64,000 bases of DNA from Rhodobacterales bacterium (GTDB lineage: Bacteria > Pseudomonadota > Alphaproteobacteria > Rhodobacterales > CAZPXZ01): positions 4,150,419 to 4,214,418 of the forward strand of contig OZ244777.1 in NCBI GenBank assembly GCA_965219495.1. The letters run 5' to 3'. Below, one piece after another: positions 16,703-59,798 of this stretch (position 1 is the stretch's first letter; each line of letters begins with the position of its first letter). The notes beneath the pieces were generated by a model. That model did not search any database and was not told the DNA's origin. It worked only from the letters and a program-made list of their open reading frames with translations. The position numbers and the translations under genes were made by a program.

Positions 16703-17111
16703 TCTCCGTCAGATCCGCGGCTGACCACCCCCATGCCGGGGACGACGGCGAGATATGCGCATCTGGCGCGGGGTATTCGAGACATAGGCGGTGCGCCGGA
16801 CCGTGGACGGCAGTGGGGCGGGATGCCGATTGCCGGCCGCGCTGAACCGGGTGTCCGTCCTCGTACAGATGGGCTTTCCGGCGGATTTTTCGAGAACCGC
16901 CAGAGGCATGGCGGGGTCGGGGCGCCGCAGGCTGTCGGCTTCATGCTCTTGCGGCATGAATTTTACCTCAAGAGGCATTTTCTTTTTCGCTGCTGTGCCG
17001 CTAGTCGATTTCGCGGACTGCGCGGCGGTGAGAGGGTCCTGAGCGTTTCTCCGGACCGGAGCGCTTTCCCGTACCGGGACATTCGCCGGTTCCGCCGCGG
17101 GAGGCGGAACC

Positions 17112-17730
17112 ATGAGAGGTCAAGGGCAGCGGGCGTCGCGCGGACGCGGGGACGCCCGGTGGCTGGTCGTCGTCGAATCCCCGGCCAAGGCGCGGACGGT
17201 CGAGCGGTTTCTCGGGCGCGGCTGGCGGGTGCTCGCCTGCCACGGCCATGTGCGGGACCTGCCGACGACGGCTTCGCGATGGTCTACGAGACCGCGGGGC
17301 GGCGCGCGGCGCGGGCGCTGGGGGCGATCCGGGCGGCGCTCGGCGATGCCGAGGGGCTGATCCTCGCCACCGACCCGGACCGCAAGGGCGAGGCGATCGC
17401 CTGGCAGGTGCTGACCTGGCTGCGGGAGAAGGATGCGCTCGGGGACAAGCCGGTCGAGCGGGTCGCCTTCCGCGAGATCACGGCCGAGGGGGTGCGCGCG
17501 GCGATGGCGCGCCCGCGCGGCCTCGACATGGACCTGGTGCAGGCGCAGCAGGCGCGGCGCGCGCTCGACTACCTGGTCGGTTACGGGCTGTCGCCGCTGA
17601 TGTGGCGCAAGGCGCCGGTCGGCCGGTCGGGTGCAGTCGGTGGCGCTGCGCCTCGTCTGCGCGCGCGAGGCGGAGATCGAGGCCTTCGTCCCGCAGGAAT
17701 ACTGGACCGTGGAGGCGGCGGTCTCGGTCG
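17112..17730 (+). pseudogene. topA: DNA topoisomerase IA N-terminal fragment, frameshifted and truncated
   Basis: [44 protein letters not shown], then [23 protein letters not shown] in another frame. Confidence 0.9.
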
Positions 17731-17791
17731 AGCGCCGGACGGTGCGGCGGCGGTCGGCCTGTCACCGGTCACGGTTGCGGAGAGAGCGGCA

Positions 17792-18100
17792 ATGAAGAAG
17801 TCGGAGATGGCCGAGCGTGTGGCGGGCAGGATGGGGCTGAGCAAGTCCGCCGCCGAGGGTGCTGTCGACGCGGTGTTCGAGACGATCGTCGAGGCGCTGG
17901 CGAGGGAAGAGGCGGTGCGCATCGCCGGGTTCGGGACGTTCGCGACGAGGAGCCGGAGCGCGCGCACCGGACGGAACCCGCAGACCGGGGAGAGCATCGC
18001 GATCCCGGCGTCGAAAGCGCCGTCGTTCAAGGCGGGGAAGGCGCTCAGAGCGGCGGTCAACGAAGGGCGGGAGGCGAAGCCCGATAGGTGCGGAGAGTGA
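17792..18100 (+). CDS. hup: HU family DNA-binding protein
   Basis: [11 protein letters not shown]...VRIAGFGTF...[28 protein letters not shown]. Confidence 0.95.
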
Positions 18101-18921: not shown

Positions 18922-19883
18922 GAGTTTGACCTAAAACTATTGAGAGGCTTCGACATGTGGTATTTTCCATATAGCTTAAACACGAAATATGGAGAGCACC
19001 CATGCCCTGGAATGAAACCACTCGCGCTGAGTATAAGCGCCCCTCGTCTCGTTACGAGACGGATTTGACGGATGCGGAATGGTCACTGTTGGACCCCCAT
19101 CTTCCGGGACCGGCATCGACCGGTCGTCCCCGCACCACGGACCTTCGGGAAGTCTTGAACGCGATCCTGTACATGGCCAGCACAGGTTGCCAATGGCGCG
19201 CCTTACCCAAGGATTTTCCACCGTTTACGACGGTTCAGAACTATTTCTACGGCTGGTCGAAAGGGGGACGAATGGAGGTCATTCTGGCGTCGCTTCGGCG
19301 GGCGGCGCGCCTCGATGCGGGACGCGCGGAAGAGCCAACGGCGGGTGCGATTGATAGCCAGAGCGCCAAGACCACCGAGAGCGGAGGACCGCGCGGTTAC
19401 GACGCCGGCAAGAAGGTGAAGGGCCGCAAGCGCCACCTTGTGGTGGATACGGAAGGGAACCCTCTGACGGTGCAGATTCATGCGGCGAGCATTCAGGATC
19501 GGGACGGCGCGCCGGACGTGTTGGAAGAGGCGGTCGCGTGCTGCCCGACATTGCAGGCGTTGTTCGCGGATGGGGGCTACTCGGGGCCGAAACTTGCGGC
19601 GTCCCTGTGCGACCGCAGCCTGGATCTGGATCTCATCATCGTTTCCAAGCCCCCGGGAAGCAAGGGTTTTGCGGTTCTCCCCCGCCGCTGGGTGGTGGAA
19701 CGGACTCTTGCCTGGCTGAACCGCTGCCGACGATTGGCCAAGGACTTCGAGCGAACCATCGAGAGCGCCAAGGCGTGGGTGCTCTGGGCTGCGGTGCGGC
19801 TCTTGGTCCGTCGCCTCGGGCGGCGCGTAAGTGCCTGTGCAACAATGGGTTAAATGGACTTGCTAAAGTTTTGATTCAGACAC
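18922..19883 (+). mobile_element. IS5-family element (IS1031-like), 962 bp
   Basis: Imperfect IRs GAGTTTGACCTAAAACT / GTGTCTGAATCAAAACT; TAA duplication at 18919-21 and 19884-86. Confidence 0.9.
19002..19853 (+). CDS. IS5-family transposase
   Basis: 283 aa; YETDLTDAEW, GCQWRALPKDFPP, AIDSQS, GKKVKGRKRH, ADGGY, RWVVERTLAWL. Confidence 0.95.
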   Translation: MPWNETTRAEYKRPSSRYETDLTDAEWSLLDPHLPGPASTGRPRTTDLREVLNAILYMASTGCQWRALPKDFPPFTTVQNYFYGWSKGGRMEVILASLRRAARLDAGRAEEPTAGAIDSQSAKTTESGGPRGYDAGKKVKGRKRHLVVDTEGNPLTVQIHAASIQDRDGAPDVLEEAVACCPTLQALFADGGYSGPKLAASLCDRSLDLDLIIVSKPPGSKGFAVLPRRWVVERTLAWLNRCRRLAKDFERTIESAKAWVLWAAVRLLVRRLGRRVSACATMG

Positions 19884-20462: not shown

Positions 20463-21786
20463 AGTATGAAGTCCTACTTTTCATGCTTGACGCGGTTAAT
20501 GGCTGCAACAGCGTTAGCCGAGCTGGTCAGGAAAAACTCCTCTGTAGGGTGCACATTTCATATGGAGTAAAGTAAACCGTTCGTTTGCAATCAGTTAGAC
20601 TAGCACTGGCGCATTCCGAGTCGTCGTTTGGTGACACGATTTCCCGGGTTTGACCGCTTATGCCGGATTTTCGCGAATTTCCTCCGGTTTCCCGGGGCAG
20701 GAGGGGGGGGTGAGTGCTCCTACCAACATGTGGTATATGGATTGAAGTTCACAACAATATCCGGGAGCACTCCGATGACAGTATTGCCGTTTCCTGCGCG
20801 AGAGTCCAGCATTGCGAGAGATGCGACCGCTGTGGAGATCGAGACGATTCTCTCGAAGTTCGGAACGAATGCGCGGGCGCTGTTTGCGTCCCTTGCGGAG
20901 GGGACCCAGTCTGCGGAGGGTTTCGAGCGTTCTCTGGCGGCGGTCTCGAACGCCGCCAGTTGTGCGTTCATGCGCCTGGCGATCGAGTCGGTTGACGAGG
21001 AGAGCGACCGATTGGTGGTGGACGGCAACGTGTATCACCGGATCGGCACATCGCCCCACACGATGCTGAGTTCGTTTGGTCCGGTTTGGTATGAGCGTTC
21101 CCGCTATCGCCGTCGGGGTTGCGATTCCGTTGTCCCGGCGGACCTCCGGTTTGGCCTGATCAACGGCTTTTGGTCGCCGCTTGCGGCGCGGCGTGGGACG
21201 TTGTTGATGGGGCTGGCGCCTGCCGGGGATTGCGTGCGGCTTTCCGAGGAGCTGGGCGGCATGTCGCCGTCTGCGACGGCGCTCAATCACCTCGTGGAAA
21301 CGGTTGGCGAAGCCTGGAATGTCGTGCAGGTCAAGGCCTTGCCCAGCATCCGCGCCGACGAGGACATCCCTGCGGGATCGTCGGCGCTTTCGATTTCGCT
21401 GGACGGCGTCATGCTTGGGATGCGCAACGAGAAAGGTGAAGGGCGGCAAGGAGATGCGGCGGCGACGGGTTTCCGCGAGGCGTCCTGCGGCGCGGTGTCG
21501 TTGCTGGATGCGGATGGCGAGCGTATCCGCACGGTCTATTCCGGGCGGATGCCGGAAGCCGGCAAGGCGACGCTGAAGCGCGGCCTGCTCGAGGAGGCCG
21601 GGCATGTGCTGCACATCCGCCCGGACCTGGAAGTGGTGATCCTCGCCGATGGGGCCGCCGACAACTGGAACTGGTTCTCCGAGGCCTTTCCGGAAGCCAC
21701 CGAAATCCTCGATTTCTGGCACGCCGCCCAGCATCTCAAGGCGGCGCTGGACAGCGCCTGTGGAACCGACAGCATGGAGGCGCGGC

Positions 21787-24293
21787 CTGCCCATTAGTCA
21801 GTTTTTAACTGGACGTATCCAATTGTACAGCGGGCTTTCCTCGCCATTCTTGATCAGGCGCTCCATTGCCTGCGTCGCGACAGCCAGGCGGGTGTAGCCT
21901 TCCCAGATCACCTGATGACCGGGTGGTGCGTCATGCTTCCGGTTGAGGTAGCCGCCCAGCCGCGCGATCAGCAGGATCGCGCAGCCAAGCGACAGCGGTG
22001 GAACCTCCCGGCCTTTGGCAACCGCCGTTGGAGCGCGGTCGCCGGGTTGCGCGGCAGTCGAGGGAAGAGCAATCCCGCGTTCGATCGCAAAATCGCACAA
22101 CACCGCGATTTCAACCTTCGAGAACATGGTTTCGGCAAGCAGTTCCGGGGTCTCGCGCCCGAGCAGGGTCAGCGCGGCCAGCCGGTAGGCGATGATCGCG
22201 TTGATGGTGACCGCGCGCTTGATCCGTTCCGCTGTCGTATGGGCAATCTTCTCGACATCGCAACCGCTCTTGAGGATCCGGTGATAGTCCTCGATGCGCC
22301 AGCGAAGGCCATACAGATCCACCACCTCCCGGGCCTGTTGGTCGGTCGTCACCGACACGGTGGTGATCAAGAGCCATTCGATCCCCTCCGCGCCTTTCGG
22401 CGGTTCCGCCTCGTGCACATGGACCACCGACAGCGGCGCCGGCGCCGCGCCAAGGCGCGCTTTCTGTTTCGCCGGCATCGGCATCTCGATGCGCTCCCAG
22501 CGCAGCGCGACGCGCGCCAGGCGCGCCTCGCGGCCCGCGAACGCTTTCTGACCGCGCGCCGCCTTGCGCGCAGAGGCCCGGTCAACCTTGACCTCCAGCG
22601 CCGCCCGAACCGGCGTCGCACGCATCGTCGCGAACAGCTTGCCGCCATCGCCGAGAACACGGTCGTGCTTCGCCCGCACGAGCAGCGCCGCGCCACCCTC
22701 ATCGCGATGCGCCGCGAACAGTTCAGCCAAGTCACCCTCGCGATCCATGACCGAAATCACCCGCGTATCCGCGAGATCCGCCACCAGCGCATTGGTGTCG
22801 CGCCAGCCCCGCAGCCAGCGCTGCGTCTTCTTCTCCGCCGCCGGCTTGTTCTTGTCCGACTTCCCGTCCGGGGCATCGAATTCGATGCGCGGGATGCCGA
22901 GCGGCACCCCCTCCGCGTTCACTGCAAAGGTCGTGTGCATATGCAGCCCCAACGTGCCCGAAGCCCCCTTGTTCTTCGAGATCACCCCGAGACCCGAACA
23001 GCCATGATGGGTCGCGAAGTTCAGGTCGCTGCCGTCCTGGATGCAAAGCACCGTCGGGTGTCCCCGCATGCGACGCAGCGTCCGCCCCCGGTGCGTCGCC
23101 AGCATCGCCTCCGGCGTCAACGCCGACTCGTCAGGCCGCTCGATCATTCGATAATATCCCTGCACCGCCGCCGCATCGCCACAGGCGGCGGAAAAGAACG
23201 TCTTCGCCGGCGCCGCCGCCTGGATTGCGGCGCTTTTCACCAGCCGCTTGCACAGCGCCGCATTGCCGACCGGCGCAGCGCCGAATTCATTTGCCGCCCA
23301 GTTCTCCCGGTCCAGCCCGTCACCCGGGCCAAGTACCCGCGGGGTCGGCCGCGGCGGCGCAGCGCCCAGCCCGGCAACCCCCAACTGCCGTCGCCAGTTC
23401 CGGGCCAGCGGGTACATGTAGATCGCCTTCGCCGGCACGCGGGCGCCCGCCGCAGCGCGCCGGCCGCGGCCCGCCGTCTCGCCGACATAGGTCCAGTTCG
23501 CCGCCCGCAGGCTGACCCCGCTCTGTCCCGGCCCGACAAAGGTCTCGACCAGAAGCGGTGCGACACCATAGCGCGCCGCGTAGTCACCGGCCATCGCACG
23601 CAGGCACAGGCTGAGCGCCTTCGAGGCCAGGTTCCGGCACCCGGTCCCGGGACGGACAAGAAAACGTGACAGCCCCACTACCCGGTCAAGATGCGCCTCG
23701 CGGCGGCCCGCGTCCCATCCGATCCAGCGGTCGCGCGGCTGCAGCGCCAGCGCCGAGGCGGCGAACAGGCAGCCGCCGAGCCAGCCGTGCTCCGAGCCGA
23801 TCAGATACCGAAGCTGCCGCCCCACATGCACAACCGCCCCCTGCGGATGTTCCCGCCGCATCATCTCGTTGAACCGGCGCCGATCCGCTTCCTCATCGAC
23901 CCGCAGCGCCACAAGACCGTCGATCCGGTCGACACGATCCGGAACATCGACCGCCGCCGGAACCGGCTCGGCCAAGCCTTGCGCCGTCCGCCCGACACCG
24001 GAACCGGGACCTGGCGGCGGCAGCACAATACCCCCCGCACGCTCAAGCTCCCGCAGCGCCGACAGGCATCCCGCCTCCTGCAGCCGGCCACGCGGATCGC
24101 GGAAATCGAAACGCGCGCAAACCTCGCGCACCAAAGCCGAGCGACCGGAAAACACATCCGGCGCCGGAAGCGCCGCCAATGTCTCCCGTCCTGCTTCCGA
24201 AAACAGGGTGCGGCGAATCAAATTCTGTGCAAGCATGCACCCTGATAACAGGTGAATTAAAAAAAGTCCAGCAGCAAAAAGCGCAATGGGCAG
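21787..24293 (-). mobile_element. IS4-family element, copy 1 (2507 bp)
   Basis: Terminal CTGCCCATT / AATGGGCAG; 8-bp flanks GGCGCGGC / GCCGCGGC (1 mismatch). Confidence 0.92.
21798..24236 (-). CDS. DUF4338 (DruA-like)-IS4 (Tn5/IS50-like) transposase fusion, 812 aa
   Basis: N-terminal RDRWIGW..SRFLV..NLAS..LLVETFV..AANWTYVGET; C-terminal IQDGSDL, VMDREGD, YGLRWRIEDYHRILKSGC, ARLGGYL...PG..VIWEG; start MLAQNL lies inside the IR. Confidence 0.88.
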   Translation of the reverse strand: MLAQNLIRRTLFSEAGRETLAALPAPDVFSGRSALVREVCARFDFRDPRGRLQEAGCLSALRELERAGGIVLPPPGPGSGVGRTAQGLAEPVPAAVDVPDRVDRIDGLVALRVDEEADRRRFNEMMRREHPQGAVVHVGRQLRYLIGSEHGWLGGCLFAASALALQPRDRWIGWDAGRREAHLDRVVGLSRFLVRPGTGCRNLASKALSLCLRAMAGDYAARYGVAPLLVETFVGPGQSGVSLRAANWTYVGETAGRGRRAAAGARVPAKAIYMYPLARNWRRQLGVAGLGAAPPRPTPRVLGPGDGLDRENWAANEFGAAPVGNAALCKRLVKSAAIQAAAPAKTFFSAACGDAAAVQGYYRMIERPDESALTPEAMLATHRGRTLRRMRGHPTVLCIQDGSDLNFATHHGCSGLGVISKNKGASGTLGLHMHTTFAVNAEGVPLGIPRIEFDAPDGKSDKNKPAAEKKTQRWLRGWRDTNALVADLADTRVISVMDREGDLAELFAAHRDEGGAALLVRAKHDRVLGDGGKLFATMRATPVRAALEVKVDRASARKAARGQKAFAGREARLARVALRWERIEMPMPAKQKARLGAAPAPLSVVHVHEAEPPKGAEGIEWLLITTVSVTTDQQAREVVDLYGLRWRIEDYHRILKSGCDVEKIAHTTAERIKRAVTINAIIAYRLAALTLLGRETPELLAETMFSKVEIAVLCDFAIERGIALPSTAAQPGDRAPTAVAKGREVPPLSLGCAILLIARLGGYLNRKHDAPPGHQVIWEGYTRLAVATQAMERLIKNGEESPLYNWIRPVKN

Positions 24294-24781
24294 GCCGCGG
24301 CGCCGGTTCGAGAGGCTCCGGGAAAAGCTGCGCGACGAGGAAGACGGCGTCGAGCGGATCGTGCGGGCGCTCCGCCATCTGGCCAGCAAACATCCGCGCC
24401 GGAAAGCCATCGCCCGGGAACTGGCCTTCTTCCGCAAGAACCGGCAACGCATGCGCTACGCCGCGTTCCAGAACCGGAAGCTGCCGATCGGCTCGGGGGT
24501 GGTCGAGGCTGCCAACAAGGTTCTCGTGACCCAGCGGCTTAAATGCTCCGGGATGCGCTGGAAGCTCGACGGAACCGGCCAATATGTTCTGAGCGTGCGG
24601 GCCTTATGGAAATCCCACCGATTTGAAGCGGCCTGGAGCGAAATCATCACCGCCCTGGAGCCTCCGGAATTCACGTTTCAAAATCGCAATAATGTCGTAA
24701 TAGCTGAAGTATTGCACTAAGCGCGCCCTTCAACTATTTACTCCATAGAAAATTTTCTCCCCCTCTGTATGCGCTTCACCT

Positions 24782-27324: not shown

Positions 27325-28410
27325 TCACGCGCGCTCGGACAGAAGGGCCAGGAGCGGGGGGTTGATGTAGAGGTTCTCGCGCCCAGCCTTGATTTCCTCG
27401 AGGAGGCCTTCGGCTGCGAGGGCTTTCAGATAGACGGCGGCCGTCTGGCGCTTGGCGATGTCCGCTTCGACCACGTCACTGATCCGGCAGTAGGGATTCA
27501 CGAAGATCAGTTCCGCCAGTTCGCGGGAGTAGATTTTCGGCATCCCCTGTCGAATTGCGGCGCCTGTCTCGTCGAGAAGCTCCCGGATCGCGCGGATTTT
27601 CGCCGTCGTCCATTCCGCCGTCGTTCTGACAGCCTCCAGAATGAAGAGTATCCATGCTTCCCAGTCCTGTCGGGTCGTCACCTCGAGCAGATACCGGTAG
27701 TAGAGCGCCTTGTTCCGGATGATGTGCCGGCTGAGATAAAGGACGGGAACGTCGAGCAGGCCTTTGTCGACGAGATAGAGCAGGTTCAGCACGCGTCCGG
27801 TCCGGCCGTTTCCGTCGACGAACGGATGGATCGCCTCGAACTGATAATGCATGACCGCAAGCCGGATCAGCGGGTCGATCTCCTCAGCCTCGTGAATGTA
27901 GCGCTCCCAATTGGCCAGTTTGCTCCGGAGAACGTCCTCTCCCTCCGGCGGCGTGTAGATGACCTGCTTGGTTGCATCGTTCACCAACGCCGTTCCCGGC
28001 GTGTTGCGAATGTCCAGCTCCACTCCCTTGATCGTTCGACAGACTTCGACCGCAATGGCGGTCGAAACCGGCCGTTGGTTCAGCATCTCGAATCCGCGGT
28101 GCAATGCGGTGCGGTAGCGCAGAGCTTCCCTGGTGGCAGGGTCGGCTCGACCCGTCGCGTCGTTGGCATAGCGGAACAGCCGGTCGGCCGTCGTCACGAT
28201 GTTCTCGATCTCGGAACTCGCCTGCGCTTCGAGCAGGGGGATCGAGTTGATCAGCATCGCCTGGTTCGGGATGAGATTCCCGGAGACGCGGAGCTCTACC
28301 AGTGCCGCGCGCGCGGCAATGCAACTCCGAAGAATGGCCTTGGTCTCGGTTTCCGAAGCCGGTGGCAGGTTCGGGAGGTCATTGAAGGGACGACCGGGAT
28401 CGAAGGTCAT
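27325..28410 (-). CDS. fic: Fic family protein adenylyltransferase
   Basis: HPFVDGNGRTGR; EAQASSEIEN inhibitory-type motif; start MTFDPGRPFNDLP. Confidence 0.93.
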   Translation of the reverse strand: MTFDPGRPFNDLPNLPPASETETKAILRSCIAARAALVELRVSGNLIPNQAMLINSIPLLEAQASSEIENIVTTADRLFRYANDATGRADPATREALRYRTALHRGFEMLNQRPVSTAIAVEVCRTIKGVELDIRNTPGTALVNDATKQVIYTPPEGEDVLRSKLANWERYIHEAEEIDPLIRLAVMHYQFEAIHPFVDGNGRTGRVLNLLYLVDKGLLDVPVLYLSRHIIRNKALYYRYLLEVTTRQDWEAWILFILEAVRTTAEWTTAKIRAIRELLDETGAAIRQGMPKIYSRELAELIFVNPYCRISDVVEADIAKRQTAAVYLKALAAEGLLEEIKAGRENLYINPPLLALLSERA

Positions 28411-28471
28411 GTCGATGTATCCAGCTCCTGTCGACACATTTTCCGAACATGTCGATTCCGTCGACATGTCA

Positions 28472-28514
28472 CCGCAACGTGTCGATGAAAAGAATATACA
28501 TCAACACGTTGCGG
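28472..28514. promoter_or_regulatory. Inverted repeat upstream of fic
   Basis: CCGCAACGTGTCGATG-N11-CATCAACACGTTGCGG (15/16 match). Confidence 0.5.
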
Positions 28515-28534
28515 TATGGCAAGCAGGGGGATGG

Positions 28535-28603
28535 GCAATGCCGCGCGCTGTCGATCGGGCGCTCCTCGCTCTACTACGAGCCGAAGGGGGCGAGGGCCGC
28601 GAG
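28535..28603 (+). mobile_element. IS3-family orfB scrap
   Basis: GQCRALSIGRSSLYYEPKG resembles the IS3 OrfB start (RQC.LL.I.RSS.YY.P). Confidence 0.5.
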
Positions 28604-28673
28604 TGTAAGAATGGCGCCAGCGGTTTGTGCTCGTTGGGAACTTGTGGAGTGAGGCGGAGTGAACGGGGGCGGG

Positions 28674-29897
28674 TCACGCAGCGTCGGCGACGCTTTCCGG
28701 CCCGGCCAAAAGCGCCTCGATCCGGTCGGCGACATTCTGCGCCGGTTCTCGGAGTTGGGAGACGGTCCAGTCGGCGGCATAGCCTTCGGTGACGTCGTTG
28801 GGGCGGGCATGGTTGACGAGGCGCTTGGTGAGGGAGGAGGGCAGCATCAGCTCGCGCTCGGCGACGGTAATGAAGCAGTTGCGCAGGCCGTGGAACCAGA
28901 ACTTGGCGCCGCCGGCCTTGCTGATGCGGTGGTAGAGGTGATGGATGTCCTGCACATGGCCGGTGGCGCTGGTGGGCGAGGGAAACACCCAGTCGCGAAT
29001 GCCGGCAGGCAGGTTGTCGGCCGCCAGCCGGCGGCGCTCGAGAATGGCCGCGAGTTGCCGGGTGATCGGAAGCTCCAGGGGCGCGCCGGTCTTGGTCTCC
29101 TCGACCCGGAAGGTGAGCGCTGCCAGGTCGACCCGCTCCCAGCGGAGTGTGAGCACCTCCTCGCGGCGCATGCCGGTGTAGAGCCCGAACCAGAGAGCGT
29201 CCCGGATCGCCGGGTTGTGCACCTCCGCCTCGATCCCGGCGCGCCAGCACGGCAGCACCTCTGCCGGGGCCGAAATCTTGCGCCTTGTCTTTCGGTGGAA
29301 CTTGCCGCCGCCGGCGAGCCAGAGATCGACCGGATTGCGCAGCCCGTCCAGGTCGACGCAGGGCCTGCGGTAGACCGAGCGCAGAAGCGACATCGCCCGG
29401 TTGGCTGCAGACCAGCCGTGGTCGGCCGTGATGCTGTTGAAACGGGTCTCGACATCCTTGCGCGCGATAGCGTCGAGCGGGCGGGTGAGCCAGTCGCCCA
29501 GATACCGCTTCGCCTCGTAGCGGTAGAGCTCGTTGGTGCGCTTCGAGCGGTTGGGATTGGCCGCCATATACTCTTCGAAGGTATCTCCGAGCGAGGGCAT
29601 GCTGCGCGCCTCGGCGCGTTCCTCCGCCGGATTGTCGCCGTCGGCGACCTTGCCGAGGATCTTCTGTGCCTGTCGCCGCGCCTGGTCGGCCGTCACCTTG
29701 CCGTAGCGGCCGATGACGACGCGCTTGTTGGGCGCCTTCCGGCCACCGTCGCCGGCACGGTAGTTGACGATGAAGGACTTGGCGCCGCCGGGATGGACAC
29801 GGATGCCGAAGCCCACGAGCTTGTCGTCCCATGCGATCCATGACGTATCGGTCGGCTCAAGCGCTTCGATGATCCGCTTGGTGAGTGTCGTGCGCAC
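28674..29897 (-). CDS. Tyrosine integrase with N-terminal arm-binding domain (P4-like)
   Basis: 407 aa; WDDKLVGFGIRV..G.KSF; TGMRREE; KTG; HGLR; LVNH; GY. Confidence 0.93.
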   Translation of the reverse strand: MRTTLTKRIIEALEPTDTSWIAWDDKLVGFGIRVHPGGAKSFIVNYRAGDGGRKAPNKRVVIGRYGKVTADQARRQAQKILGKVADGDNPAEERAEARSMPSLGDTFEEYMAANPNRSKRTNELYRYEAKRYLGDWLTRPLDAIARKDVETRFNSITADHGWSAANRAMSLLRSVYRRPCVDLDGLRNPVDLWLAGGGKFHRKTRRKISAPAEVLPCWRAGIEAEVHNPAIRDALWFGLYTGMRREEVLTLRWERVDLAALTFRVEETKTGAPLELPITRQLAAILERRRLAADNLPAGIRDWVFPSPTSATGHVQDIHHLYHRISKAGGAKFWFHGLRNCFITVAERELMLPSSLTKRLVNHARPNDVTEGYAADWTVSQLREPAQNVADRIEALLAGPESVADAA

Positions 29898-30061
29898 CTT
29901 CGCGGTACGTTTTCCGGTGTTCGTTGTGAGCGCTCAGTTTGATTGCTGGATGTATTTTCACGCTGTCTGATGGAATGAGGGCTGTTGGGGCCGATTTTGC
30001 GCGGTTTGGACGCCGGCGGTCTTGGGTTGCGGACGTTGTCCGTTGGATAGTTTGATTTTTC

Positions 30062-31892
30062 GTAACTGCCCAGCACTCAGTCTCGCGCGTACGTGAAGGC
30101 TGCGCAAGGCTTGCGTTTGAAATTATACATGCTTGGGGCGGGACCGGCGTGGCGGCAGCGGGCAGGGCGTATGGAGCGGTTTAGCATTGGATTTTTCCGA
30201 TCAGTTGGTTCGGCGATGTCATCAAGGTTTCGATGATGTTCCAGCCCTGCTTTCTGGCGGTGGTGATGGCGCTGCGCAGGGTGGCGAAGTCTTGGGTGCC
30301 TTTTGGGGAGCGGAACCCGCCGGAGATTTTCTGGCGCAATTTCCCCATTCGACCATCGCGTTCGGCTTCATTATTGGTAAACGGAACGTCGGCGTCGGTG
30401 AGGAAACGCAAGGTCTCGGTTTTGTAGTCCTGGAGCCGGAGGGCGAGATTGTGTCCGGCGCGGCGTTTCTTTCGCCCGCGTTTGCCGGGCTCCGGCGGCG
30501 CGAGCGGTGGCTGCGCCTCATGAAAGGCGAGCGCCTCGGCGAGGATCCAATCATAGGTTCGCCCGATCCGGTCGAGCAGCGTTTCGGGGGGAGGTCTTGC
30601 CATTGTTCTGGCGAGATGAACGACCCGATTGGCGCGCGACAGGAGCCGGTGCATATGCCGGGCCCAGTCCTCTTTTTCGATGTCGATCAGGGCTTGAAGT
30701 TCGCGCAGGTGATGGGCGTTGCAGAGGGCGTGTGAAACGCCGCTGATCTTGAAACAGGGCTTCCAATGATCGTGAACGACACAACCGGAGAACCCCGCCA
30801 GCAAGTCGCCGCGCTTTTCGTGGACGCGAAACAAGGTCAGCCATGGCGTGCAGGCAATGTGGAGCCACTGCGTGCGCCCGCCAACCCGGAAGCCGGTCTC
30901 GTCGAGATGCTTCACCGGCGCCTTGCGGACGATCAGCTCCCGCACATGGTTGACGAAACCCTGGAACTGCTCGGCCATCCGGCGGCTCATCGCCGCCAGC
31001 GTCGCGGCGCACACGGGCGCGTTGAACAGGTCGGCCATCAGTTGCGACAAACGATCCTCGGGCAGGAAATGCGCATGGCTCAGATAGGCCGCCACCGCCG
31101 CCATGCGCGGACCATACTGCACCGGCGCCGTCACGCCTGCGGGAAACGCCGCCCGTGTCGTCGCGCCGCAATGACCGCAAACGCAACGGTGAGCGCGGTG
31201 CTCCGTGGCCTCGAGGGGGCGCGGCTCCGGCAGGTCGAAGACCTGTCTTGCGACATGGCTTTCATCCCCGTCCGCAGCCGACAGCGGCGCGCCGCAGCCC
31301 GCACAGTGCGACGGATGATGATCCTCGACATGGTCCGGCCTGTCGGTCCGGCGCAAGGTCGAGCCCGCGTGCCCGGGCTGCCCGCCGCTCGGCCTGCCCG
31401 ATTTGCCGCGCTGGCTCCTTGTCCGGGGCTCCGCCCGCGGCTTCTGCAGCCCGTCACTCGAAGGAGGCTTGCTGCTGTTCCGGCTGTTCCGGCCAAGCTG
31501 GCGCTCCAGCTCTTCAAGACGTTGCCGCAGGGTCGCGTTCTCGGCTTGCAAACCAGCGAGCTGTTCGCCTTGCGCCGCGAGTTGCTCGTCCTTTTGTTCG
31601 AGTTGCTCCCGCAAAGCCTCAATCTGTTTCGTTCCGCCATCATCATGCGGCGCCCCTTGCGCCGGGTGGGTCGGCCCTGAAAAAGCCGGCAAGAACCGTC
31701 GGGTCTGAAAGCGAATCGCCATGCCGCTATAAATAGCGCAGGTTGAATTCTGTTACCAGTCCCTGGTGTTACCAGTAATTTTTCGAGAAAGAACTGTTCT
31801 CGCCCGTGTAACCGTCACAACCGGGCAGCATCGACCTTGCGGCAGTGGCGGGCAATGCACTCCGTGGTGCACGCACTTACCTGGGCAGTTAC
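30062..31892 (-). mobile_element. IS66-family element, single-ORF type (1831 bp)
   Basis: IR GTAACTGCCCAG at both ends; 8-bp duplication GATTTTTC at 30054-61 and 31893-900. Confidence 0.93.
30181..31722 (-). CDS. IS66 transposase
   Basis: 513 aa; NSRNSSKPPSSD, GGQPGH.G, HLDETG, VHDHW, LCNAHHLREL, FTNNEAERD. Confidence 0.95.
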   Translation of the reverse strand: MAIRFQTRRFLPAFSGPTHPAQGAPHDDGGTKQIEALREQLEQKDEQLAAQGEQLAGLQAENATLRQRLEELERQLGRNSRNSSKPPSSDGLQKPRAEPRTRSQRGKSGRPSGGQPGHAGSTLRRTDRPDHVEDHHPSHCAGCGAPLSAADGDESHVARQVFDLPEPRPLEATEHRAHRCVCGHCGATTRAAFPAGVTAPVQYGPRMAAVAAYLSHAHFLPEDRLSQLMADLFNAPVCAATLAAMSRRMAEQFQGFVNHVRELIVRKAPVKHLDETGFRVGGRTQWLHIACTPWLTLFRVHEKRGDLLAGFSGCVVHDHWKPCFKISGVSHALCNAHHLRELQALIDIEKEDWARHMHRLLSRANRVVHLARTMARPPPETLLDRIGRTYDWILAEALAFHEAQPPLAPPEPGKRGRKKRRAGHNLALRLQDYKTETLRFLTDADVPFTNNEAERDGRMGKLRQKISGGFRSPKGTQDFATLRSAITTARKQGWNIIETLMTSPNQLIGKIQC

Positions 31893-31899
31893 GATTTTT

Positions 31900-32835
31900 C
31901 TACTTGGAAAGGAAGGCGCCGAGGGTTTCGGATTTGAGCAGCATTTCGCTCCAGTCTGCGGCGCCTTTGGGCCTGAGGCGGCGGATTCTGGGGTCGCTTT
32001 CGGCGAGATGGCGGGCTGCGCGGTCTCCGGGGATGTCGGCGTCGTAGCCACAGAGGATTTGGCTGGGGGTCCATTGGTTCATCCAGGTGGGGATGCGGCG
32101 TGCGAGTCCGGCGGTGGATGCGACGGTGACGGGCTGTTTGGCGAGCTGCCTTGCAGCGAGGGCGTCAACGGCGCTTTCGGCGATCAGGACGGTTTCGGGG
32201 GGGATCGGTCCGGCAGCGATCCAGAATGCGCCGAGGCTTTTGCGGGAACCTGGCGCCATTGTCTTGCGTCCGCCGGGCCGGGGTTCGGCGATTTCGGCGC
32301 CGTTCGGGCGTCCTTCGGCGTCGGCGCAGACGAACACGGCGCGGCCGTACTGGTCGGCGTGCAGCCGCTTGCGCCTGTGGCACTGTTCGAGGAGCGCGGG
32401 ATCGATGCCGCGTTCAGCGGCGAGGGCGTCGCGGAGACGGGGCCATTGCGCGGGGTCGGGGCCGGGAATCCGGATGCGGGGTTGCGGGGGATTGTCGGGT
32501 GCGACGGTTTCAGCCTGCATTCCGGCGAGCCATTCGAGCGCTTCGGGGAAGCTTCGTCCGGTCGCATGGATGACGAAGTCGAGGGCGCCTCCGCCGCCCT
32601 GTCCTGCGATGTGATCGAAGAATTTGGATCCGTTGATGCTGACGATGGAGCCATTGCGGGTCCATTTCGCGCGGTCGCGCGGGTGGGGTCGGAAGCCGAG
32701 GGATTTTGCGACCGTTTGGAGCGGGACGGTCCTTGCCCGGGCGGCTGCTGTGGGCGGTGTTTCCGGTTTCCGTTTCCCTGCGGTCCCGGCGGACCGGGGG
32801 AAACGGAACCGCTCAGGATGCGATCCGGCAGCCAT
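31900..32835 (-). CDS. Toprim/primase-like protein (DUF3991-toprim type)
   Basis: GGGGALDFV.H; VLIAESAVDAL; LCGYDADIPG; KGAADWSE; start uncertain. Confidence 0.75.
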   Translation of the reverse strand: MAAGSHPERFRFPRSAGTAGKRKPETPPTAAARARTVPLQTVAKSLGFRPHPRDRAKWTRNGSIVSINGSKFFDHIAGQGGGGALDFVIHATGRSFPEALEWLAGMQAETVAPDNPPQPRIRIPGPDPAQWPRLRDALAAERGIDPALLEQCHRRKRLHADQYGRAVFVCADAEGRPNGAEIAEPRPGGRKTMAPGSRKSLGAFWIAAGPIPPETVLIAESAVDALAARQLAKQPVTVASTAGLARRIPTWMNQWTPSQILCGYDADIPGDRAARHLAESDPRIRRLRPKGAADWSEMLLKSETLGAFLSK

Positions 32836-33778
32836 TCGGGGTGCTTTCGACGCGGCCCTCGTCGACCAGTTCCTTGAGCGCCTGGACCACGGCCTCGGCC
32901 CGGATGCCGGCCCGGGAGCGCAGCTCCCTTTGCGGCATCGGCGCCTTCGCCTTTGCGAGGACGGCCTCGATGCGCTGGCGGGGGGTGTCGGCGGGGGGTT
33001 GTTCGGCGTCTGCGTCGTCGACATGGAGCGCGAGTTCCGGGGGACGGGCCCTGAGTTCGAGGGCCAGTTCGGGGCCGCTGGGCAGCCCCCGGTGCTCGGC
33101 GTTGAGCAGGATGCGGCGGCTTCCGCGGCGCTGGAGGTAGAGCAGGGAGTCGGCCCAGGCGTGAAGCTCGGTGGAGCCGCGCAGCGCCTGTCCTCCGCGC
33201 CGGTGGCCGTCCTTGCGGGCGTGGTGGACCAGCAGCACGGCGCATCCGAAGCGGACCTGGAGTTCGCGCAGCGATCCGAGCAGGGGGGCGATCTCGCCGG
33301 CCTGGTTCTCGTCGACCGCGTGCAGCCGGACCAGCGGGTCGAGGGCGAGCAGCCGGGGCCGGACGCGTTCGACGGTTTCGGCCAGCCGGACCCGGTCGGC
33401 GGCGACATCGAGGCGCAGCCGGGGGGTGTCGATGATCTCGATGTCGAGGCTGTCCAGGGCGCGGCCTGCGGCGCGGGCGATGCCGCCGAGCCGTTCGCGG
33501 AGAATGTGCCGGGCGTCCTCGGCGGCGAACAGCAGCGCGGTTCCGGGGGCGGCGACGGCGAACCGCCGCAGGCAGCGGGCGCCGGTGGCGACGGCGACGG
33601 CGATGTCGAGCGCCAGGAAGGACTTGCAGCACTTCGGCTCGCCGCCGATGATGCCCACCGCCTGGTCGCCCCAGAGCTGCTCGACCAGCCACTTCTCCGG
33701 CTCCGGCCTGGCCTCCAGGTCGGCCGGGCGGAAGGTGGGGAAGCCGCGCCGCCTGGCGCCATTGCCGGGCGGACTCAT
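32813..33778 (-). CDS. RecA/RepA-like AAA_25 helicase with C-terminal wHTH
   Basis: WLVEQLW; GGEPKCCKS; LALDPL; LVHHARK; LRGSTELHAWAD; ATG overlaps the ExeA stop. Confidence 0.85.
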   Translation of the reverse strand: MSPPGNGARRRGFPTFRPADLEARPEPEKWLVEQLWGDQAVGIIGGEPKCCKSFLALDIAVAVATGARCLRRFAVAAPGTALLFAAEDARHILRERLGGIARAAGRALDSLDIEIIDTPRLRLDVAADRVRLAETVERVRPRLLALDPLVRLHAVDENQAGEIAPLLGSLRELQVRFGCAVLLVHHARKDGHRRGGQALRGSTELHAWADSLLYLQRRGSRRILLNAEHRGLPSGPELALELRARPPELALHVDDADAEQPPADTPRQRIEAVLAKAKAPMPQRELRSRAGIRAEAVVQALKELVDEGRVESTPNGCRIAS

Positions 33779-34599
33779 CGCCGCGCCCGGGCGGTGTCGG
33801 GATAGGCCTTGAAGTAGAGCGCCATGTCGATCCGGTCCTCTTCGCGTTCGGCGGCGGACCTGAGCAAGGCGTCGCCCATGATGGTGAGGGAACGCAGGTT
33901 GCCGCCGCAGTGGGCGCACAGGGTGTGCTTCAGTTCGGCGTCCATCAGGCCGGGGTTGCCGGCCTGCTCCAGCATGTGGTCGAGGCTGGCCTCGAGGTCG
34001 GCCGGCTCGGCGAAGCCGAGGTTGAGCCGCAGGCGGACGCGGGACAGCAGCGGCAGCAGGTCGGGCCGGCGCATGCGCGCCAGCAGTTGGGTGTCGCCGG
34101 CCAGGATGACGGCGAGGATGCTGCGCGAATCGAACTCGGTGGAGGACAGCAGCCGCAACTCGCCCAGCACTTCCGGGGCTGCCGCCTGGGCCTCGTCGAT
34201 CAGCAGCACGGGGCGCAAACGGGTGCCGTCGAGATGCGCCGCCCAACTCTCGCGGAGGCCCTTGAAGCCGGACCACAGGTTGCCGGCCAGCATGCCGACG
34301 CCGAACAGTTCCGCCATCTCCCGGTAGAAGTTCGAGAGGCTGGCGCTGGCGTGGCTCAGGGAGGCGGTCTTGAGGTCGGCGCGCCGGGACAGCGCCTCGC
34401 CGACGATGCGCAGCGCGGCGCTCTTTCCGGTGCCGGGTTCGCCGCTCACCATCGCGAAGCCGCCATGCGCCAGCAGGTGGTTCTCGACCTGCCAGCGGAA
34501 GCTGGCGATCTGCGGCGTCTCGCGCAGGGCCGAGGTCGGCGCATCCGGCAGGAACGGATTCCATTTGAGCCCGAAACGGGCGTGCAGCCTATGATCCAT
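33775..34599 (-). CDS. ExeA/TnsC-like AAA+ ATPase (transposition helper)
   Basis: 274 aa; FGLKWNPF; GEPGTGKS; LLIDEAQ; ILAGD; GNLRSL. Confidence 0.9.
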   Translation of the reverse strand: MDHRLHARFGLKWNPFLPDAPTSALRETPQIASFRWQVENHLLAHGGFAMVSGEPGTGKSAALRIVGEALSRRADLKTASLSHASASLSNFYREMAELFGVGMLAGNLWSGFKGLRESWAAHLDGTRLRPVLLIDEAQAAAPEVLGELRLLSSTEFDSRSILAVILAGDTQLLARMRRPDLLPLLSRVRLRLNLGFAEPADLEASLDHMLEQAGNPGLMDAELKHTLCAHCGGNLRSLTIMGDALLRSAAEREEDRIDMALYFKAYPDTARARR

Positions 34600-35198: not shown

Positions 35199-35199
35199 T

Positions 35200-35502: not shown

Positions 35503-35709
35503 CTGTCAAAGAGATTATGCCGCAATATGTAAGAACATTTATGCCGATGTATGGTGACGTGCCCCAGGCGATCATCGGATCGGTTGATGTCGACTGCATC
35601 GCAACTCGCTGTTGTTGGCGTATAATCCCCAATGAACAGTGCGAGAAGCTTGACGACGCCCTCCTGGTGCGGCATATATATAATGACAGTTTCGCGAAAG
35701 GAACCCCCC

Positions 35710-38523: not shown

Positions 38524-38597
38524 CGCCTCGAGCCTGCGCATCAACGACAACGTTATCGTGTGCTGCCGAAGCCGGGCACGCGGACAAGGAGAACACG

Positions 38598-38885: not shown

Positions 38886-39072
38886 TGACACCCGATACGG
38901 TCACGTTACCATGTACGGTTGAAATCCCGGTCGCCACCAACGCAGTTCCAACCGACGGCGGGGCGGACGCGAACCTTGAGTACAACGGCACGGGAACGGC
39001 TCTGATCAATCAAACATGTTCCCATCGAACCCATGGAGTGCAGTATGAATCACAGTCCTTCTGCTGCGGACT

Positions 39073-55879: not shown

Positions 55880-56928
55880 CGCAGTGGCTCCATGCAGTCG
55901 GCACTACCCAAAAGCAGTGCTTGACCGCTTTCATCTGGAGTTCGCCACGTATTGCGGGCAGTCGCTACTCGTCCCATCGCTTGTCCCAACCCGTCCGAAT
56001 CGTTGAAGCCAGGTACATCGAGATTTCCTGTATGCCGTTTGGTCGCTCATGTGGCAGCCTGCACGTTGCAGAAACGTGCACTCCGCCCCCTATTCTTGCT
56101 CCACGCTATCTTCGTCATGGCGCACCTTCGAGAGACCCGCAGCCACCAGTCCAGCCGGCACTGCGACGATTCTCAACCCACACATCAGGATTATGAACGT
56201 GAATATCTTGCCACCTGCCGTGATGGGATAAACATCACCGTTGACCTGCCCCTGGCGACTGGTCCAGTGCGGTAGTCAACCCGTCCTTCCGGTCACTCAT
56301 TGCCAGTAGGCCTTCATCACCGCCAGCCTCGATCACGCGATCGAAGAACTCTCCGTATTCGACCTCCTTCTCGCGGTCTGCGGGTTCCGTGTGGACCACC
56401 TCGCCCTCCACCGTGTACCGAAACGTCCCTTTCACGCTAACCACGATGTGTCAAACGACAACTATGATGGCCACCAGCGACAACTATCATGCCGCACATT
56501 TGCGGGGCGATTTGGTCGGCGTTTTTCCGGTTCCCGGTTCCTGGCGGGTTGGCGTCTTGTCGCCGGACGATCCCATTATTCGTGCATGACGTTCGCCGTA
56601 CCGGTTCCCTGAAGGGCGCGATGCGGGCGACCGTGCGCAATGCGTGTGTTTCTTGACGGTGTCAGGATCCGGTGACGCCGATTGCCGGAGCGGCGCCCTG
56701 GTTTCGGCGTGTGGCACCCTGCCTGCGGGGGTTGGCGGCTTGCTGCCTGGCCGGGTGGGTGGATGAGGCGTAGCCGGGTTCACGGAACTCGATGGCGCCA
56801 CCGCTTGGCGGGTGCTTCGGATGCCCGCGATATGACGGCTTGCGGGGAGGCCGGCATGGCTGCCGGTCGGCAGCGGGGGCGGCGCCGGATTTCGGGCTGC
56901 CCCCGGCAGGGGGTTGAGCTGGTGCGGG

Positions 56929-59435
56929 CTGCCCATTAGTCAGTTTTTAACTGGACGTATCCAATTGTACAGCGGGCTTTCCTCGCCATTCTTGATCAGG
57001 CGCTCCATTGCCTGCGTCGCGACAGCCAGGCGGGTGTAGCCTTCCCAGATCACCTGATGACCGGGTGGTGCGTCATGCTTCCGGTTGAGGTAGCCGCCCA
57101 GCCGCGCGATCAGCAGGATCGCGCAGCCAAGCGACAGCGGTGGAACCTCCCGGCCTTTGGCAACCGCCGTTGGAGCGCGGTCGCCGGGTTGCGCGGCAGT
57201 CGAGGGAAGAGCAATCCCGCGTTCGATCGCAAAATCGCACAACACCGCGATTTCAACCTTCGAGAACATGGTTTCGGCAAGCAGTTCCGGGGTCTCGCGC
57301 CCGAGCAGGGTCAGCGCGGCCAGCCGGTAGGCGATGATCGCGTTGATGGTGACCGCGCGCTTGATCCGTTCCGCTGTCGTATGGGCAATCTTCTCGACAT
57401 CGCAACCGCTCTTGAGGATCCGGTGATAGTCCTCGATGCGCCAGCGAAGGCCATACAGATCCACCACCTCCCGGGCCTGTTGGTCGGTCGTCACCGACAC
57501 GGTGGTGATCAAGAGCCATTCGATCCCCTCCGCGCCTTTCGGCGGTTCCGCCTCGTGCACATGGACCACCGACAGCGGCGCCGGCGCCGCGCCAAGGCGC
57601 GCTTTCTGTTTCGCCGGCATCGGCATCTCGATGCGCTCCCAGCGCAGCGCGACGCGCGCCAGGCGCGCCTCGCGGCCCGCGAACGCTTTCTGACCGCGCG
57701 CCGCCTTGCGCGCAGAGGCCCGGTCAACCTTGACCTCCAGCGCCGCCCGAACCGGCGTCGCACGCATCGTCGCGAACAGCTTGCCGCCATCGCCGAGAAC
57801 ACGGTCGTGCTTCGCCCGCACGAGCAGCGCCGCGCCACCCTCATCGCGATGCGCCGCGAACAGTTCAGCCAAGTCACCCTCGCGATCCATGACCGAAATC
57901 ACCCGCGTATCCGCGAGATCCGCCACCAGCGCATTGGTGTCGCGCCAGCCCCGCAGCCAGCGCTGCGTCTTCTTCTCCGCCGCCGGCTTGTTCTTGTCCG
58001 ACTTCCCGTCCGGGGCATCGAATTCGATGCGCGGGATGCCGAGCGGCACCCCCTCCGCGTTCACTGCAAAGGTCGTGTGCATATGCAGCCCCAACGTGCC
58101 CGAAGCCCCCTTGTTCTTCGAGATCACCCCGAGACCCGAACAGCCATGATGGGTCGCGAAGTTCAGGTCGCTGCCGTCCTGGATGCAAAGCACCGTCGGG
58201 TGTCCCCGCATGCGACGCAGCGTCCGCCCCCGGTGCGTCGCCAGCATCGCCTCCGGCGTCAACGCCGACTCGTCAGGCCGCTCGATCATTCGATAATATC
58301 CCTGCACCGCCGCCGCATCGCCACAGGCGGCGGAAAAGAACGTCTTCGCCGGCGCCGCCGCCTGGATTGCGGCGCTTTTCACCAGCCGCTTGCACAGCGC
58401 CGCATTGCCGACCGGCGCAGCGCCGAATTCATTTGCCGCCCAGTTCTCCCGGTCCAGCCCGTCACCCGGGCCAAGTACCCGCGGGGTCGGCCGCGGCGGC
58501 GCAGCGCCCAGCCCGGCAACCCCCAACTGCCGTCGCCAGTTCCGGGCCAGCGGGTACATGTAGATCGCCTTCGCCGGCACGCGGGCGCCCGCCGCAGCGC
58601 GCCGGCCGCGGCCCGCCGTCTCGCCGACATAGGTCCAGTTCGCCGCCCGCAGGCTGACCCCGCTCTGTCCCGGCCCGACAAAGGTCTCGACCAGAAGCGG
58701 TGCGACACCATAGCGCGCCGCGTAGTCACCGGCCATCGCACGCAGGCACAGGCTGAGCGCCTTCGAGGCCAGGTTCCGGCACCCGGTCCCGGGACGGACA
58801 AGAAAACGTGACAGCCCCACTACCCGGTCAAGATGCGCCTCGCGGCGGCCCGCGTCCCATCCGATCCAGCGGTCGCGCGGCTGCAGCGCCAGCGCCGAGG
58901 CGGCGAACAGGCAGCCGCCGAGCCAGCCGTGCTCCGAGCCGATCAGATACCGAAGCTGCCGCCCCACATGCACAACCGCCCCCTGCGGATGTTCCCGCCG
59001 CATCATCTCGTTGAACCGGCGCCGATCCGCTTCCTCATCGACCCGCAGCGCCACAAGACCGTCGATCCGGTCGACACGATCCGGAACATCGACCGCCGCC
59101 GGAACCGGCTCGGCCAAGCCTTGCGCCGTCCGCCCGACACCGGAACCGGGACCTGGCGGCGGCAGCACAATACCCCCCGCACGCTCAAGCTCCCGCAGCG
59201 CCGACAGGCATCCCGCCTCCTGCAGCCGGCCACGCGGATCGCGGAAATCGAAACGCGCGCAAACCTCGCGCACCAAAGCCGAGCGACCGGAAAACACATC
59301 CGGCGCCGGAAGCGCCGCCAATGTCTCCCGTCCTGCTTCCGAAAACAGGGTGCGGCGAATCAAATTCTGTGCAAGCATGCACCCTGATAACAGGTGAATT
59401 AAAAAAAGTCCAGCAGCAAAAAGCGCAATGGGCAG
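56929..59435 (-). mobile_element. IS4-family element, copy 2 (2507 bp)
   Basis: Same ends as copy 1; exact 8-bp duplication GGTGCGGG. Confidence 0.93.
56940..59378 (-). CDS. DUF4338 (DruA-like)-IS4 transposase fusion, copy 2
   Basis: Translation appears identical to 21798-24236. Confidence 0.88.
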   Translation of the reverse strand: MLAQNLIRRTLFSEAGRETLAALPAPDVFSGRSALVREVCARFDFRDPRGRLQEAGCLSALRELERAGGIVLPPPGPGSGVGRTAQGLAEPVPAAVDVPDRVDRIDGLVALRVDEEADRRRFNEMMRREHPQGAVVHVGRQLRYLIGSEHGWLGGCLFAASALALQPRDRWIGWDAGRREAHLDRVVGLSRFLVRPGTGCRNLASKALSLCLRAMAGDYAARYGVAPLLVETFVGPGQSGVSLRAANWTYVGETAGRGRRAAAGARVPAKAIYMYPLARNWRRQLGVAGLGAAPPRPTPRVLGPGDGLDRENWAANEFGAAPVGNAALCKRLVKSAAIQAAAPAKTFFSAACGDAAAVQGYYRMIERPDESALTPEAMLATHRGRTLRRMRGHPTVLCIQDGSDLNFATHHGCSGLGVISKNKGASGTLGLHMHTTFAVNAEGVPLGIPRIEFDAPDGKSDKNKPAAEKKTQRWLRGWRDTNALVADLADTRVISVMDREGDLAELFAAHRDEGGAALLVRAKHDRVLGDGGKLFATMRATPVRAALEVKVDRASARKAARGQKAFAGREARLARVALRWERIEMPMPAKQKARLGAAPAPLSVVHVHEAEPPKGAEGIEWLLITTVSVTTDQQAREVVDLYGLRWRIEDYHRILKSGCDVEKIAHTTAERIKRAVTINAIIAYRLAALTLLGRETPELLAETMFSKVEIAVLCDFAIERGIALPSTAAQPGDRAPTAVAKGREVPPLSLGCAILLIARLGGYLNRKHDAPPGHQVIWEGYTRLAVATQAMERLIKNGEESPLYNWIRPVKN

Positions 59436-59798
59436 GGTGCGGGCCCGGTTCTCGAGTACGCCGGAGGGCCGGGTCATTTCCACCGGCGAGTTCGCGGCCT
59501 GATCACCCCGGGCGCGATGCGCTCGACATGCGCGGGCGTCGGTTCGGGTGGAAGTGGGGGCTGCTGGTGGGGGCGCCGATGGCGGCTCTACCGCGGTCGG
59601 CATTTGCGTTCGCGGCGCGCCGGCGGTTGCGGCATGTGGGGTTTGGTCGGCATGCGCCGGCGATGCGGTCTTCGGGGTGGTATGGGTGCGAGCCCGCGAA
59701 CCGCATGACGGCAGCCGAAGGCTGTCCGCTTCCTCCTCCGACCGGCTTCGGCGCAGGGTCCTGCCCGGCGCTGCCGGGCGGGCGTGCGGCGTTGGTGG

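Follow-up and report, generated by a model that had tools for sequence, protein, structure and literature searches.

The window analysed here is a stretch of 64,000 nucleotides from a Rhodobacterales bacterium (contig OZ244777.1, positions 4,150,419 to 4,214,418), and it holds two identical copies of an insertion sequence (IS) that is an active, autonomous element of the IS4 family, IS50/Tn5 group. The single gene of this IS encodes a transposase of 812 amino acids (aa) in which a complete Tn5-like enzyme is preceded by a module with a GNAT-fold domain of the Pfam family DruA/DUF4338. The extra module is under strong purifying selection in a large multicopy family that spans several phyla. The reading favoured here, to which a probability of about 0.45 is given, is that a Mom-type GNAT module forms an integral part of the transposase of an active IS50-group element and acts in cis on nucleic acid, rather than being a free-standing defence cargo.

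Recent transposition of the element by the usual cut-and-paste DDE route, with formation of 8-bp duplications, is recorded in the following features of the window.

21787..24293, minus strand: IS copy 1, a 2,507-bp single-gene element of the IS4 family (IS50/Tn5 group), identical to copy 2
56929..59435, minus strand: IS copy 2, identical to copy 1, with its coding sequence at 56940-59378 (minus strand)
24285..24293: gene-proximal terminal inverted repeat of copy 1, CTGCCCATT on the gene strand, with imperfect matches to ~28 bp; terminus conserved in relatives
21787..21795: gene-distal terminal inverted repeat of copy 1, CTGCCCATT
21779..21786: left-hand target duplication flanking copy 1, GGCGCGGC
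24294..24301: right-hand target duplication flanking copy 1, GCCGCGGC, with one mismatch
56921..56928: left-hand target duplication flanking copy 2, GGTGCGGG
59436..59443: right-hand target duplication flanking copy 2, GGTGCGGG
20628..24720, plus strand: ISKra4-like transposase gene that IS copy 1 interrupts, leaving the halves 20628-21786 and 24302-24720

Direct comparison of 21787-24294 with 56929-59436 gives 100% identity across 2,508 bp, the element proper being the 2,507 bp at 21787-24293 and 56929-59435. Its termini form a perfect 9-bp inverted repeat with scattered matches further inward, out to ~28 bp. The 8-bp direct repeat that flanks copy 2 is perfect, while the flanks of copy 1 match at 7 of 8 positions; this mismatch, present despite the complete identity of the two copies, may reflect a later point mutation or imprecise repair. 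When copy 1 and 8 bp are excised in silico, a continuous open reading frame (ORF) of 525 codons appears that resembles ISKra4 transposases (27% identity to an annotated member of that family, E 4e-33), and the restoration of this host ORF demonstrates both the boundaries of the IS and a genuine transposition event. An earlier note on this DNA had proposed two apparently identical copies that moved recently with the domain intact, and the identical copies, the duplications and the restored frame confirm it. The element itself was correctly located there; the minus strand was left unstated, and the coordinates cover the entire IS rather than its coding sequence.

The coding sequence of copy 1 and the regions of its product are arranged as follows.

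21798..24236, minus strand: coding sequence of the 812-aa fusion transposase (first ATG within the element; start conserved in homologues)
24039..24236, minus strand: small helical N-terminal domain, aa 1-66 (AlphaFold2 secondary structure, pLDDT, conservation)
23382..23912, minus strand: GNAT-fold domain (Pfam DruA/DUF4338), aa 109-285 (Pfam, AlphaFold2 model, Foldseek, conservation)
21840..23312, minus strand: complete Tn5-like transposase, aa 309-799 (end-binding N-terminal domain, DDE core, YREK motif, C-terminal dimerisation domain)

The first ATG within the element lies at 24236 in copy 1 and at 59378 in copy 2, and homologues begin at the same position as the 812-aa product that starts there. 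Longer mechanical ORFs of 884 and 887 aa extend past the IS end into unrelated flanks; since this gives the two copies different N-termini, neither was accepted as the real product. The transposase frame is open 5' of the ATG through the IS end into the flank (24237-24452 and 59379-59603), and read-in translation from outside the IS is, as far as the reading frame tells, formally possible. A sigma-70 promoter scan of the gene-proximal IS end gave no convincing promoter. An exact-sequence look-up of the window protein returned no record, and the closest relative noted, P0001, is 98% identical to it. This relative is nested in another IS of the DruA-Tn5 type.

The transposase part is recognised by the Pfam models Tnp_DNA_bind (residues 312-366), DDE_Tnp_1 (496-682) and Dimer_Tnp_Tn5 (751-788), the first of them at 20.0 bits, under the curated cut-off of 24, so that this domain rests mainly on the alignment with Tn5. 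The NCBIfam model transpos_IS4_3 matches aa 360-788 (E 5e-88), and the C-terminal 512 residues align with residues 10-456 of the 477 of Tn5 transposase (1MUS; E 2e-32). In 100 homologues, conservation reaches at least 95% both for the DDE triad (D401, D498, E649) and for the motif Y642-x2-R645-x3-E649-x6-K656. Unfused IS4 transposases carried on plasmids match residues ~309-799 only, with 30-35% identity, which marks this part as a whole Tn5-type enzyme and the first ~300 residues as a clean addition. The earlier note had described just such an arrangement, about 300 extra N-terminal residues ahead of a Tn5-like core, and the ORF listing and Pfam bear it out; the motifs it quoted (SRFLV, NLAS, ETFV, LRAANW and VGET) are found at residues 190-254.

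Tn5 shows only a weak target preference, and its scaffold is widely used as a tool. The window protein shares with its transposase the DDE triad, the Y(2)R(3)E(6)K motif and the end-binding and dimerisation domains. The ends of the window IS begin with CT and its duplication measures 8 bp, in keeping with the ends (CW...) and the direct repeats of 8-9 bp of the IS50 subgroup (PMC2266710). In contrast, its length of 2,507 bp exceeds the 1,350-1,550 bp of that subgroup (PMC2266710), and the excess corresponds to the N-terminal module, whose helical domain and GNAT domain add ~300 residues to the transposase. A further difference, the near-absolute specificity of its relatives for an 8-bp palindrome, is taken up below.

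The assignment of the module to DUF4338/DruA, also made in the earlier note, is secure: Pfam PF14236 matches residues 113-259 with an E-value of 9e-24 and 84.5 bits against a gathering cut-off of 27, covering positions 55-222 of the 297 in the profile. An AlphaFold2 model of residues 1-310, built from 78 sequences (mean pLDDT 87.9, pTM 0.76), has a helical domain (1-66) joined by a linker to a GNAT core (109-285) with the topology beta1-alpha1-alpha2-beta2-4-alpha3-beta5-alpha4-beta6-7. Foldseek returned 103 matches to this model in the PDB at E <= 1e-3, and all of the 50 that were listed are GNAT-type acyl- or acetyltransferases. The predicted GNAT fold of the module is therefore solid, and DUF4338 had already been assigned as a GNAT by Aravind's group (PMC10853773). 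A sequence search of the PDB with the N-terminal 310 aa found no match.

Conservation of the GNAT region, with an identity of 0.53-0.66 per 30-residue window, equals that of the catalytic core and runs unbroken across the junction between module and transposase. Its invariant residues are H130, Q141, R143, Y144, R168, D169, W174, R191, R195, S205, D218, E231, T232, R257 and K270; about 15 polar residues remain invariant across homologues of 45-70% identity. In the helical domain, which presumably binds DNA, R32, C40, D47, G50 and C57 are near-invariant. The pyrophosphate loop Q/R-x-x-G-x-G/A between beta4 and alpha3 is not conserved in the family, where the consensus is R-P-x-V-x-C-R-N-L-A-S, without conserved glycines at 197 and 199. 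A conserved insertion containing R168, D169, W174 and R179 separates beta3 from beta4.

A protein search at E <= 1e-5 retrieved 2,598 relatives, and statements on their architecture refer to the best 120. All of these carry PF14236 and measure 620-831 aa, mostly 770-830; for the majority, Tn5-type transposase domains are also recorded in precomputed annotation, and one listed member is named 'IS4 family transposase' by NCBI. Relatives occur in Paracoccaceae, Acidobacteriota, Bryobacterales, Binatia, Pseudomonadales, Verrucomicrobia, Planctomycetota, Anaerolineae and Gemmatimonadales, with about 28 copies in one Acidobacteriota genome and at least 11 in one Bryobacterales genome. The related elements are single-gene units of 2.40-2.48 kb with conserved ends, CTGCCC(A/T)TT, and are bordered by exact 8-bp duplications at 30 of 40 loci. 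The recurrence of the module in multicopy single-gene IS across phyla argues for a role in transposition rather than as cargo. Elements of the family are themselves often hit by other insertions (L084:3118-7388, L082:5902-10674), and a Thiodictyon copy is split between GNAT and transposase by an integrase/IS91 insertion, which generates a spurious 'stand-alone DUF4338 protein'. The GNAT domain alone retrieves 4,462 cluster representatives (50% identity) at E <= 1e-3.

A DNA search of PLSDB with the whole IS gave no match, and a plasmid protein search with the fusion protein matched only the unfused IS4 transposases. Searches with the N-terminal domain gave two plasmid matches and no phage match, with no fused copy in either collection.

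The DUF4338 domain is also fused to transposases of the ISAs1 family, in at least 120 clusters of proteins of ~442 aa. A representative is found on a plasmid of Thiodictyon.

L083:3947-5708: DUF4338-ISAs1 fusion of Thiodictyon plasmid pTs417 (WP_216644545)

Its GNAT domain is homologous to that of the window protein (hhalign E 1.6e-41, 32% identity) and again lies N-terminal of a DDE transposase. It differs in its partner (DDE_Tnp_1_assoc and DDE_Tnp_1), in the absence of the N-terminal helical domain, in keeping the Mom-type D, R and Y residues together with an HHY motif, unlike the window protein, and in a transposase split over two overlapping frames. On pTs417 the DDE domain continues in another frame, in a downstream ORF of 131 aa (DKGHGR motif in the +1 frame), a layout that suggests a conserved frameshift or a split transposase. 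Many of the invariant polar residues of the window family persist in this version. Recurrent fusion to two transposase families, IS4 and ISAs1, speaks for a role of the domain in transposition.

A second property of the family is its choice of targets. Across 29 independent insertions of relatives, nearly every duplication is of one palindromic octamer, GGCTAGCC, which occurs only 5 times in 403 kb of flanking DNA.

L017-L080: relatives inserting into GGCTAGCC in Acidobacteriota and Bryobacterales genomes, for example at L034:2932-2939 and 5362-5369

The targets of the window clade are GC-rich octamers: GGTGCGGG, GGCGCGGC, GGCGCGGT and CGCGCCGG.

The earlier note had likened the N-terminal region to Mom-like GNAT proteins, and the comparison with Mom of phage Mu bears this out in fold and in part of the active site only. 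Mom attaches glycine, donated by Gly-tRNA, to N6 of adenine in double-stranded DNA, protects DNA from restriction and dimerises via its GNAT domain; R111, S124 and R151 are essential in it, H58, Y59 and Y159 are important, and a helix-turn-helix-like insertion at 175-209 is required (PMC13219725). R111, which PMC7261163 numbers R101, is reported there to be conserved in Mom homologues and not across GNATs; the alpha3 serine, equivalent to S205, is a general CoA-contacting residue of GNATs (PMC7261163). In the Foldseek comparison of residues 1-310, which the earlier note had suggested, Mu Mom (8bv8) is the best PDB match, with an E-value of 4e-6 over 192 columns and a TM-score of 0.60 normalised to Mom. 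Against BFVD, the top matches are phage proteins of the NAT_SF or Mom-like type, one of them named Mom. A second model, of the DUF4338 domain from a 31%-identical ISAs1-fused homologue (pLDDT 79.8), again places Mom first in the PDB, at E 1.7e-8 against 4e-6 for the next match.

A profile-profile alignment (hhalign, local mode) against 107 Mom homologues pairs the following positions.

Mom R111: R191 of the window protein
Mom S124: S205 of the window protein
Mom PRNSES: CRNLAS in the window family
Mom QSF: ETF in the window family
Mom ASNFxFIG: AANWxxVG in the window family

Two residues essential in Mom, R111 and S124, are thus represented by the invariant R191 and S205, in an alignment of low statistical confidence, and H130 stands where Mom has H58, judged by position only; 3 of 7 Mom active-site positions are kept in the window protein. 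Mom and the window family also have the motifs [PC]RNxxS and A[AS]N[FW]xx[VI]G in common. A Thiodictyon relative reaches the Mom profile below threshold, at E 0.0078. With no significant sequence match, the link to Mom rests on fold and motifs. Kinship of DUF4338 and Mom at the level of families is probable, whereas Mom-type catalysis in the window protein, judged from its residues, is uncertain. The two proteins also differ in context, Mom being a free phage late protein and the window domain being fused to a transposase, and the window domain has the beta3-beta4 insertion of its own.

If the module is Mom-type and integral to the transposase, it would act in cis on nucleic acid inside the transposition complex. 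At the target or at the element ends, DNA would be engaged by the GNAT cleft together with conserved basic loops (R168/D169/W174/R179 and G256-R-G-R), and this engagement would contribute to the unusually strict target choice of the family. Perhaps the module also makes the reaction depend on a donor of acyl or aminoacyl groups, or leaves a covalent mark. That it contacts DNA, contributes to target choice and has any catalysis at all is what we infer. A more far-reaching version, in which the tethered DUF4338 is an active Mom-type transferase with acyl-CoA or aminoacyl-tRNA as donor, marking DNA at the insertion site or the ends, with DruA and DndF-fused DUF4338 likewise modifying DNA, is rather improbable.

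Several observations weigh against a Mom-type module that acts on DNA. In the first Foldseek search, ordinary GNATs follow Mom from E 1e-5 with similar TM-scores, a small margin. The hhalign E-values for Mom, 0.004-0.08, are weak, the Pfam Mom model (PF25680) gives no match to residues 1-310 at E <= 10, and a DUF4338 profile search of PDB sequences returned chance matches only and missed Mom. At the positions of Mom D149, R151 (essential), Y159 and Y59, the window protein has G235, G237, L243 and P131; in the IS4-type family as a whole, the D149 position is D or E in about half of the members, the R151 position is variable and the Y159 position is L or F. Most of the essential insertion (175-209) is also absent, a 17-residue loop with a conserved GRGR standing in its place. 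Given these missing positions and insertion, the window domain may be non-catalytic or may use another chemistry. A Mom-style adenine reaction at the targets of the window clade is unlikely, since GGTGCGGG and GGCGCGGC are GC-rich with little or no adenine, and the domain and target specificity are linked by correlation only.

Another explanation is that the GNAT is a protein acetyltransferase, acetylating the transposase or a host factor, for example one of the nucleoid proteins, and tuning transposition to the level of acetyl-CoA. Small molecules or proteins are the substrates of most characterised GNATs, which are acetylating enzymes, ordinary GNATs lie close behind Mom in the fold search, and S205 corresponds to the general CoA-contacting serine of alpha3 (PMC7261163). 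However, the Q/R-x-x-G-x-G/A loop is not conserved, positions 196-199 being variable, members of the IS4-type family have L or F in place of the alpha4 tyrosine, and the Mom-specific arginine is invariant while Mom tops the searches with both models. Protein acetylation is judged unlikely.

The loss of 4 of the 7 Mom active-site positions in the window clade, together with the dimerisation of Mom through its GNAT domain (PMC13219725), would suit a pseudo-enzyme, the module being a structural element such as a second dimerisation or synapsis interface, or a spacer controlling the N/C-terminal autoinhibition of Tn5-type transposases. It is opposed by the ~15 invariant polar residues that line a GNAT-type cleft, many of them kept in the ISAs1-fused version at 31% identity, a pattern typical of ligand or substrate binding and not of a scaffold. 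A purely structural role is on balance improbable.

The earlier note had read the module as a DNA-modifying or defence-related activity carried by the IS, and this leads to an explanation by a trans-acting, Druantia-like defence or anti-restriction function apart from transposition. Its attractions are the naming of the Pfam family after Druantia DruA, the Mom-like fold, Mom being a protein that protects DNA from restriction (PMC13219725), and the presence in the window, a mobile island, of a PDC-S06 candidate defence gene. Yet the PADLOC models of DruA do not match the fusion protein at E <= 0.01, and on this ground membership in Druantia was rejected. No Druantia model or DruE-type helicase was found by Pfam or PADLOC in the 29 larger window ORFs scanned, out of ~50 ORFs of at least 120 aa, the smaller ones being unscanned. 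Type I DruA shares PF14236 with the window protein, well over threshold, and differs from it in the PADLOC result and in its companions druB-druE, which were not found among the ORFs scanned. In the best 120 relatives the domain is covalently fused to the transposase and is not a separate cargo gene, no fused copy was seen in the phage or plasmid collections, and transposases are normally very scarce, cis-acting proteins, a poor fit to genome-wide modification. Some DndF proteins carry an N-terminal GNAT (DUF4338) fused to a DNA-directed machine (PMC10853773); by its description there, this domain belongs to the same Pfam family as that of the window protein, and its partner is a defence ATPase and not a transposase. 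The multicopy single-gene character of the IS across phyla adds to the PADLOC and ORF results, and the defence-related part of the earlier claim is not supported; a trans-acting role of this kind is very unlikely. An artefactual origin of the long ORF, through chimeric assembly or fortuitous read-through from one gene into another, has no observation in its favour and is ruled out by identical copies in two contexts, the shared architecture of the best 120 homologues and unbroken conservation across the junction.

The surroundings of the two copies form a mosaic mobile region that looks like an integrative mobile island, with GC contents of 0.52-0.71 (27325-40660, 60037-60513). Its other features are listed below.

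16733-18100, plus strand: ORF with Toprim and topoisomerase fragments and a complete C-terminal HU-type DNA-binding domain, which may be a chimeric or remnant gene
19002-19853: IS5-type transposase
27325-28467: Fic protein
28674-29897: tyrosine integrase
30181-31722: IS66 transposase
31900-33762: Toprim/DUF3991 protein
36439-38523: large serine recombinase
45941-48637, minus strand: PDC-S06 candidate defence gene, an 898-aa AAA_13-type ATPase with an end-to-end PADLOC match (E 8e-166)
50736-54830, minus strand: orphan ORF of 1,364 aa with a third-position GC of 0.84, strongly coding-like, and no Pfam or PADLOC match
55109-55879: DUF2971 protein
60037-60513: resolvase fragment

The sequences of relatives are public, annotated simply as IS4-family transposases, and the family is common among environmental bacteria. 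A literature search found no paper on a DUF4338-transposase fusion or on a DUF4338-Mom link; ISfinder was not queried and may hold a named entry. As far as the searched literature goes, four points are new: the large IS50-group lineage whose transposases begin with a DUF4338 GNAT module, the ISAs1 lineage that parallels it, the link between DUF4338 and Mom that is reproducible in structural models, and the octamer specificity.

To our knowledge, accessory enzymatic domains are uncommon on bacterial DDE transposases, Mom is the only known enzyme that aminoacylates DNA, and DUF4338/DruA is the uncharacterised first gene of type I Druantia. Against this background, a probably Mom-related GNAT has been fused to two transposase families, with at least 120 listed protein clusters each, and is conserved across phyla. 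Were the domain a structural add-on only, the result would be an ordinary, well-delimited IS annotation. Were it an active Mom-type transferase, transposition would be dependent on, or recorded by, DNA hypermodification. If the domain acts on DNA, it would add a new level of regulation or targeting to Tn5-type transposition, might explain the near-absolute 8-bp target specificity of the family, and would provide the first functional handle on DUF4338/DruA.

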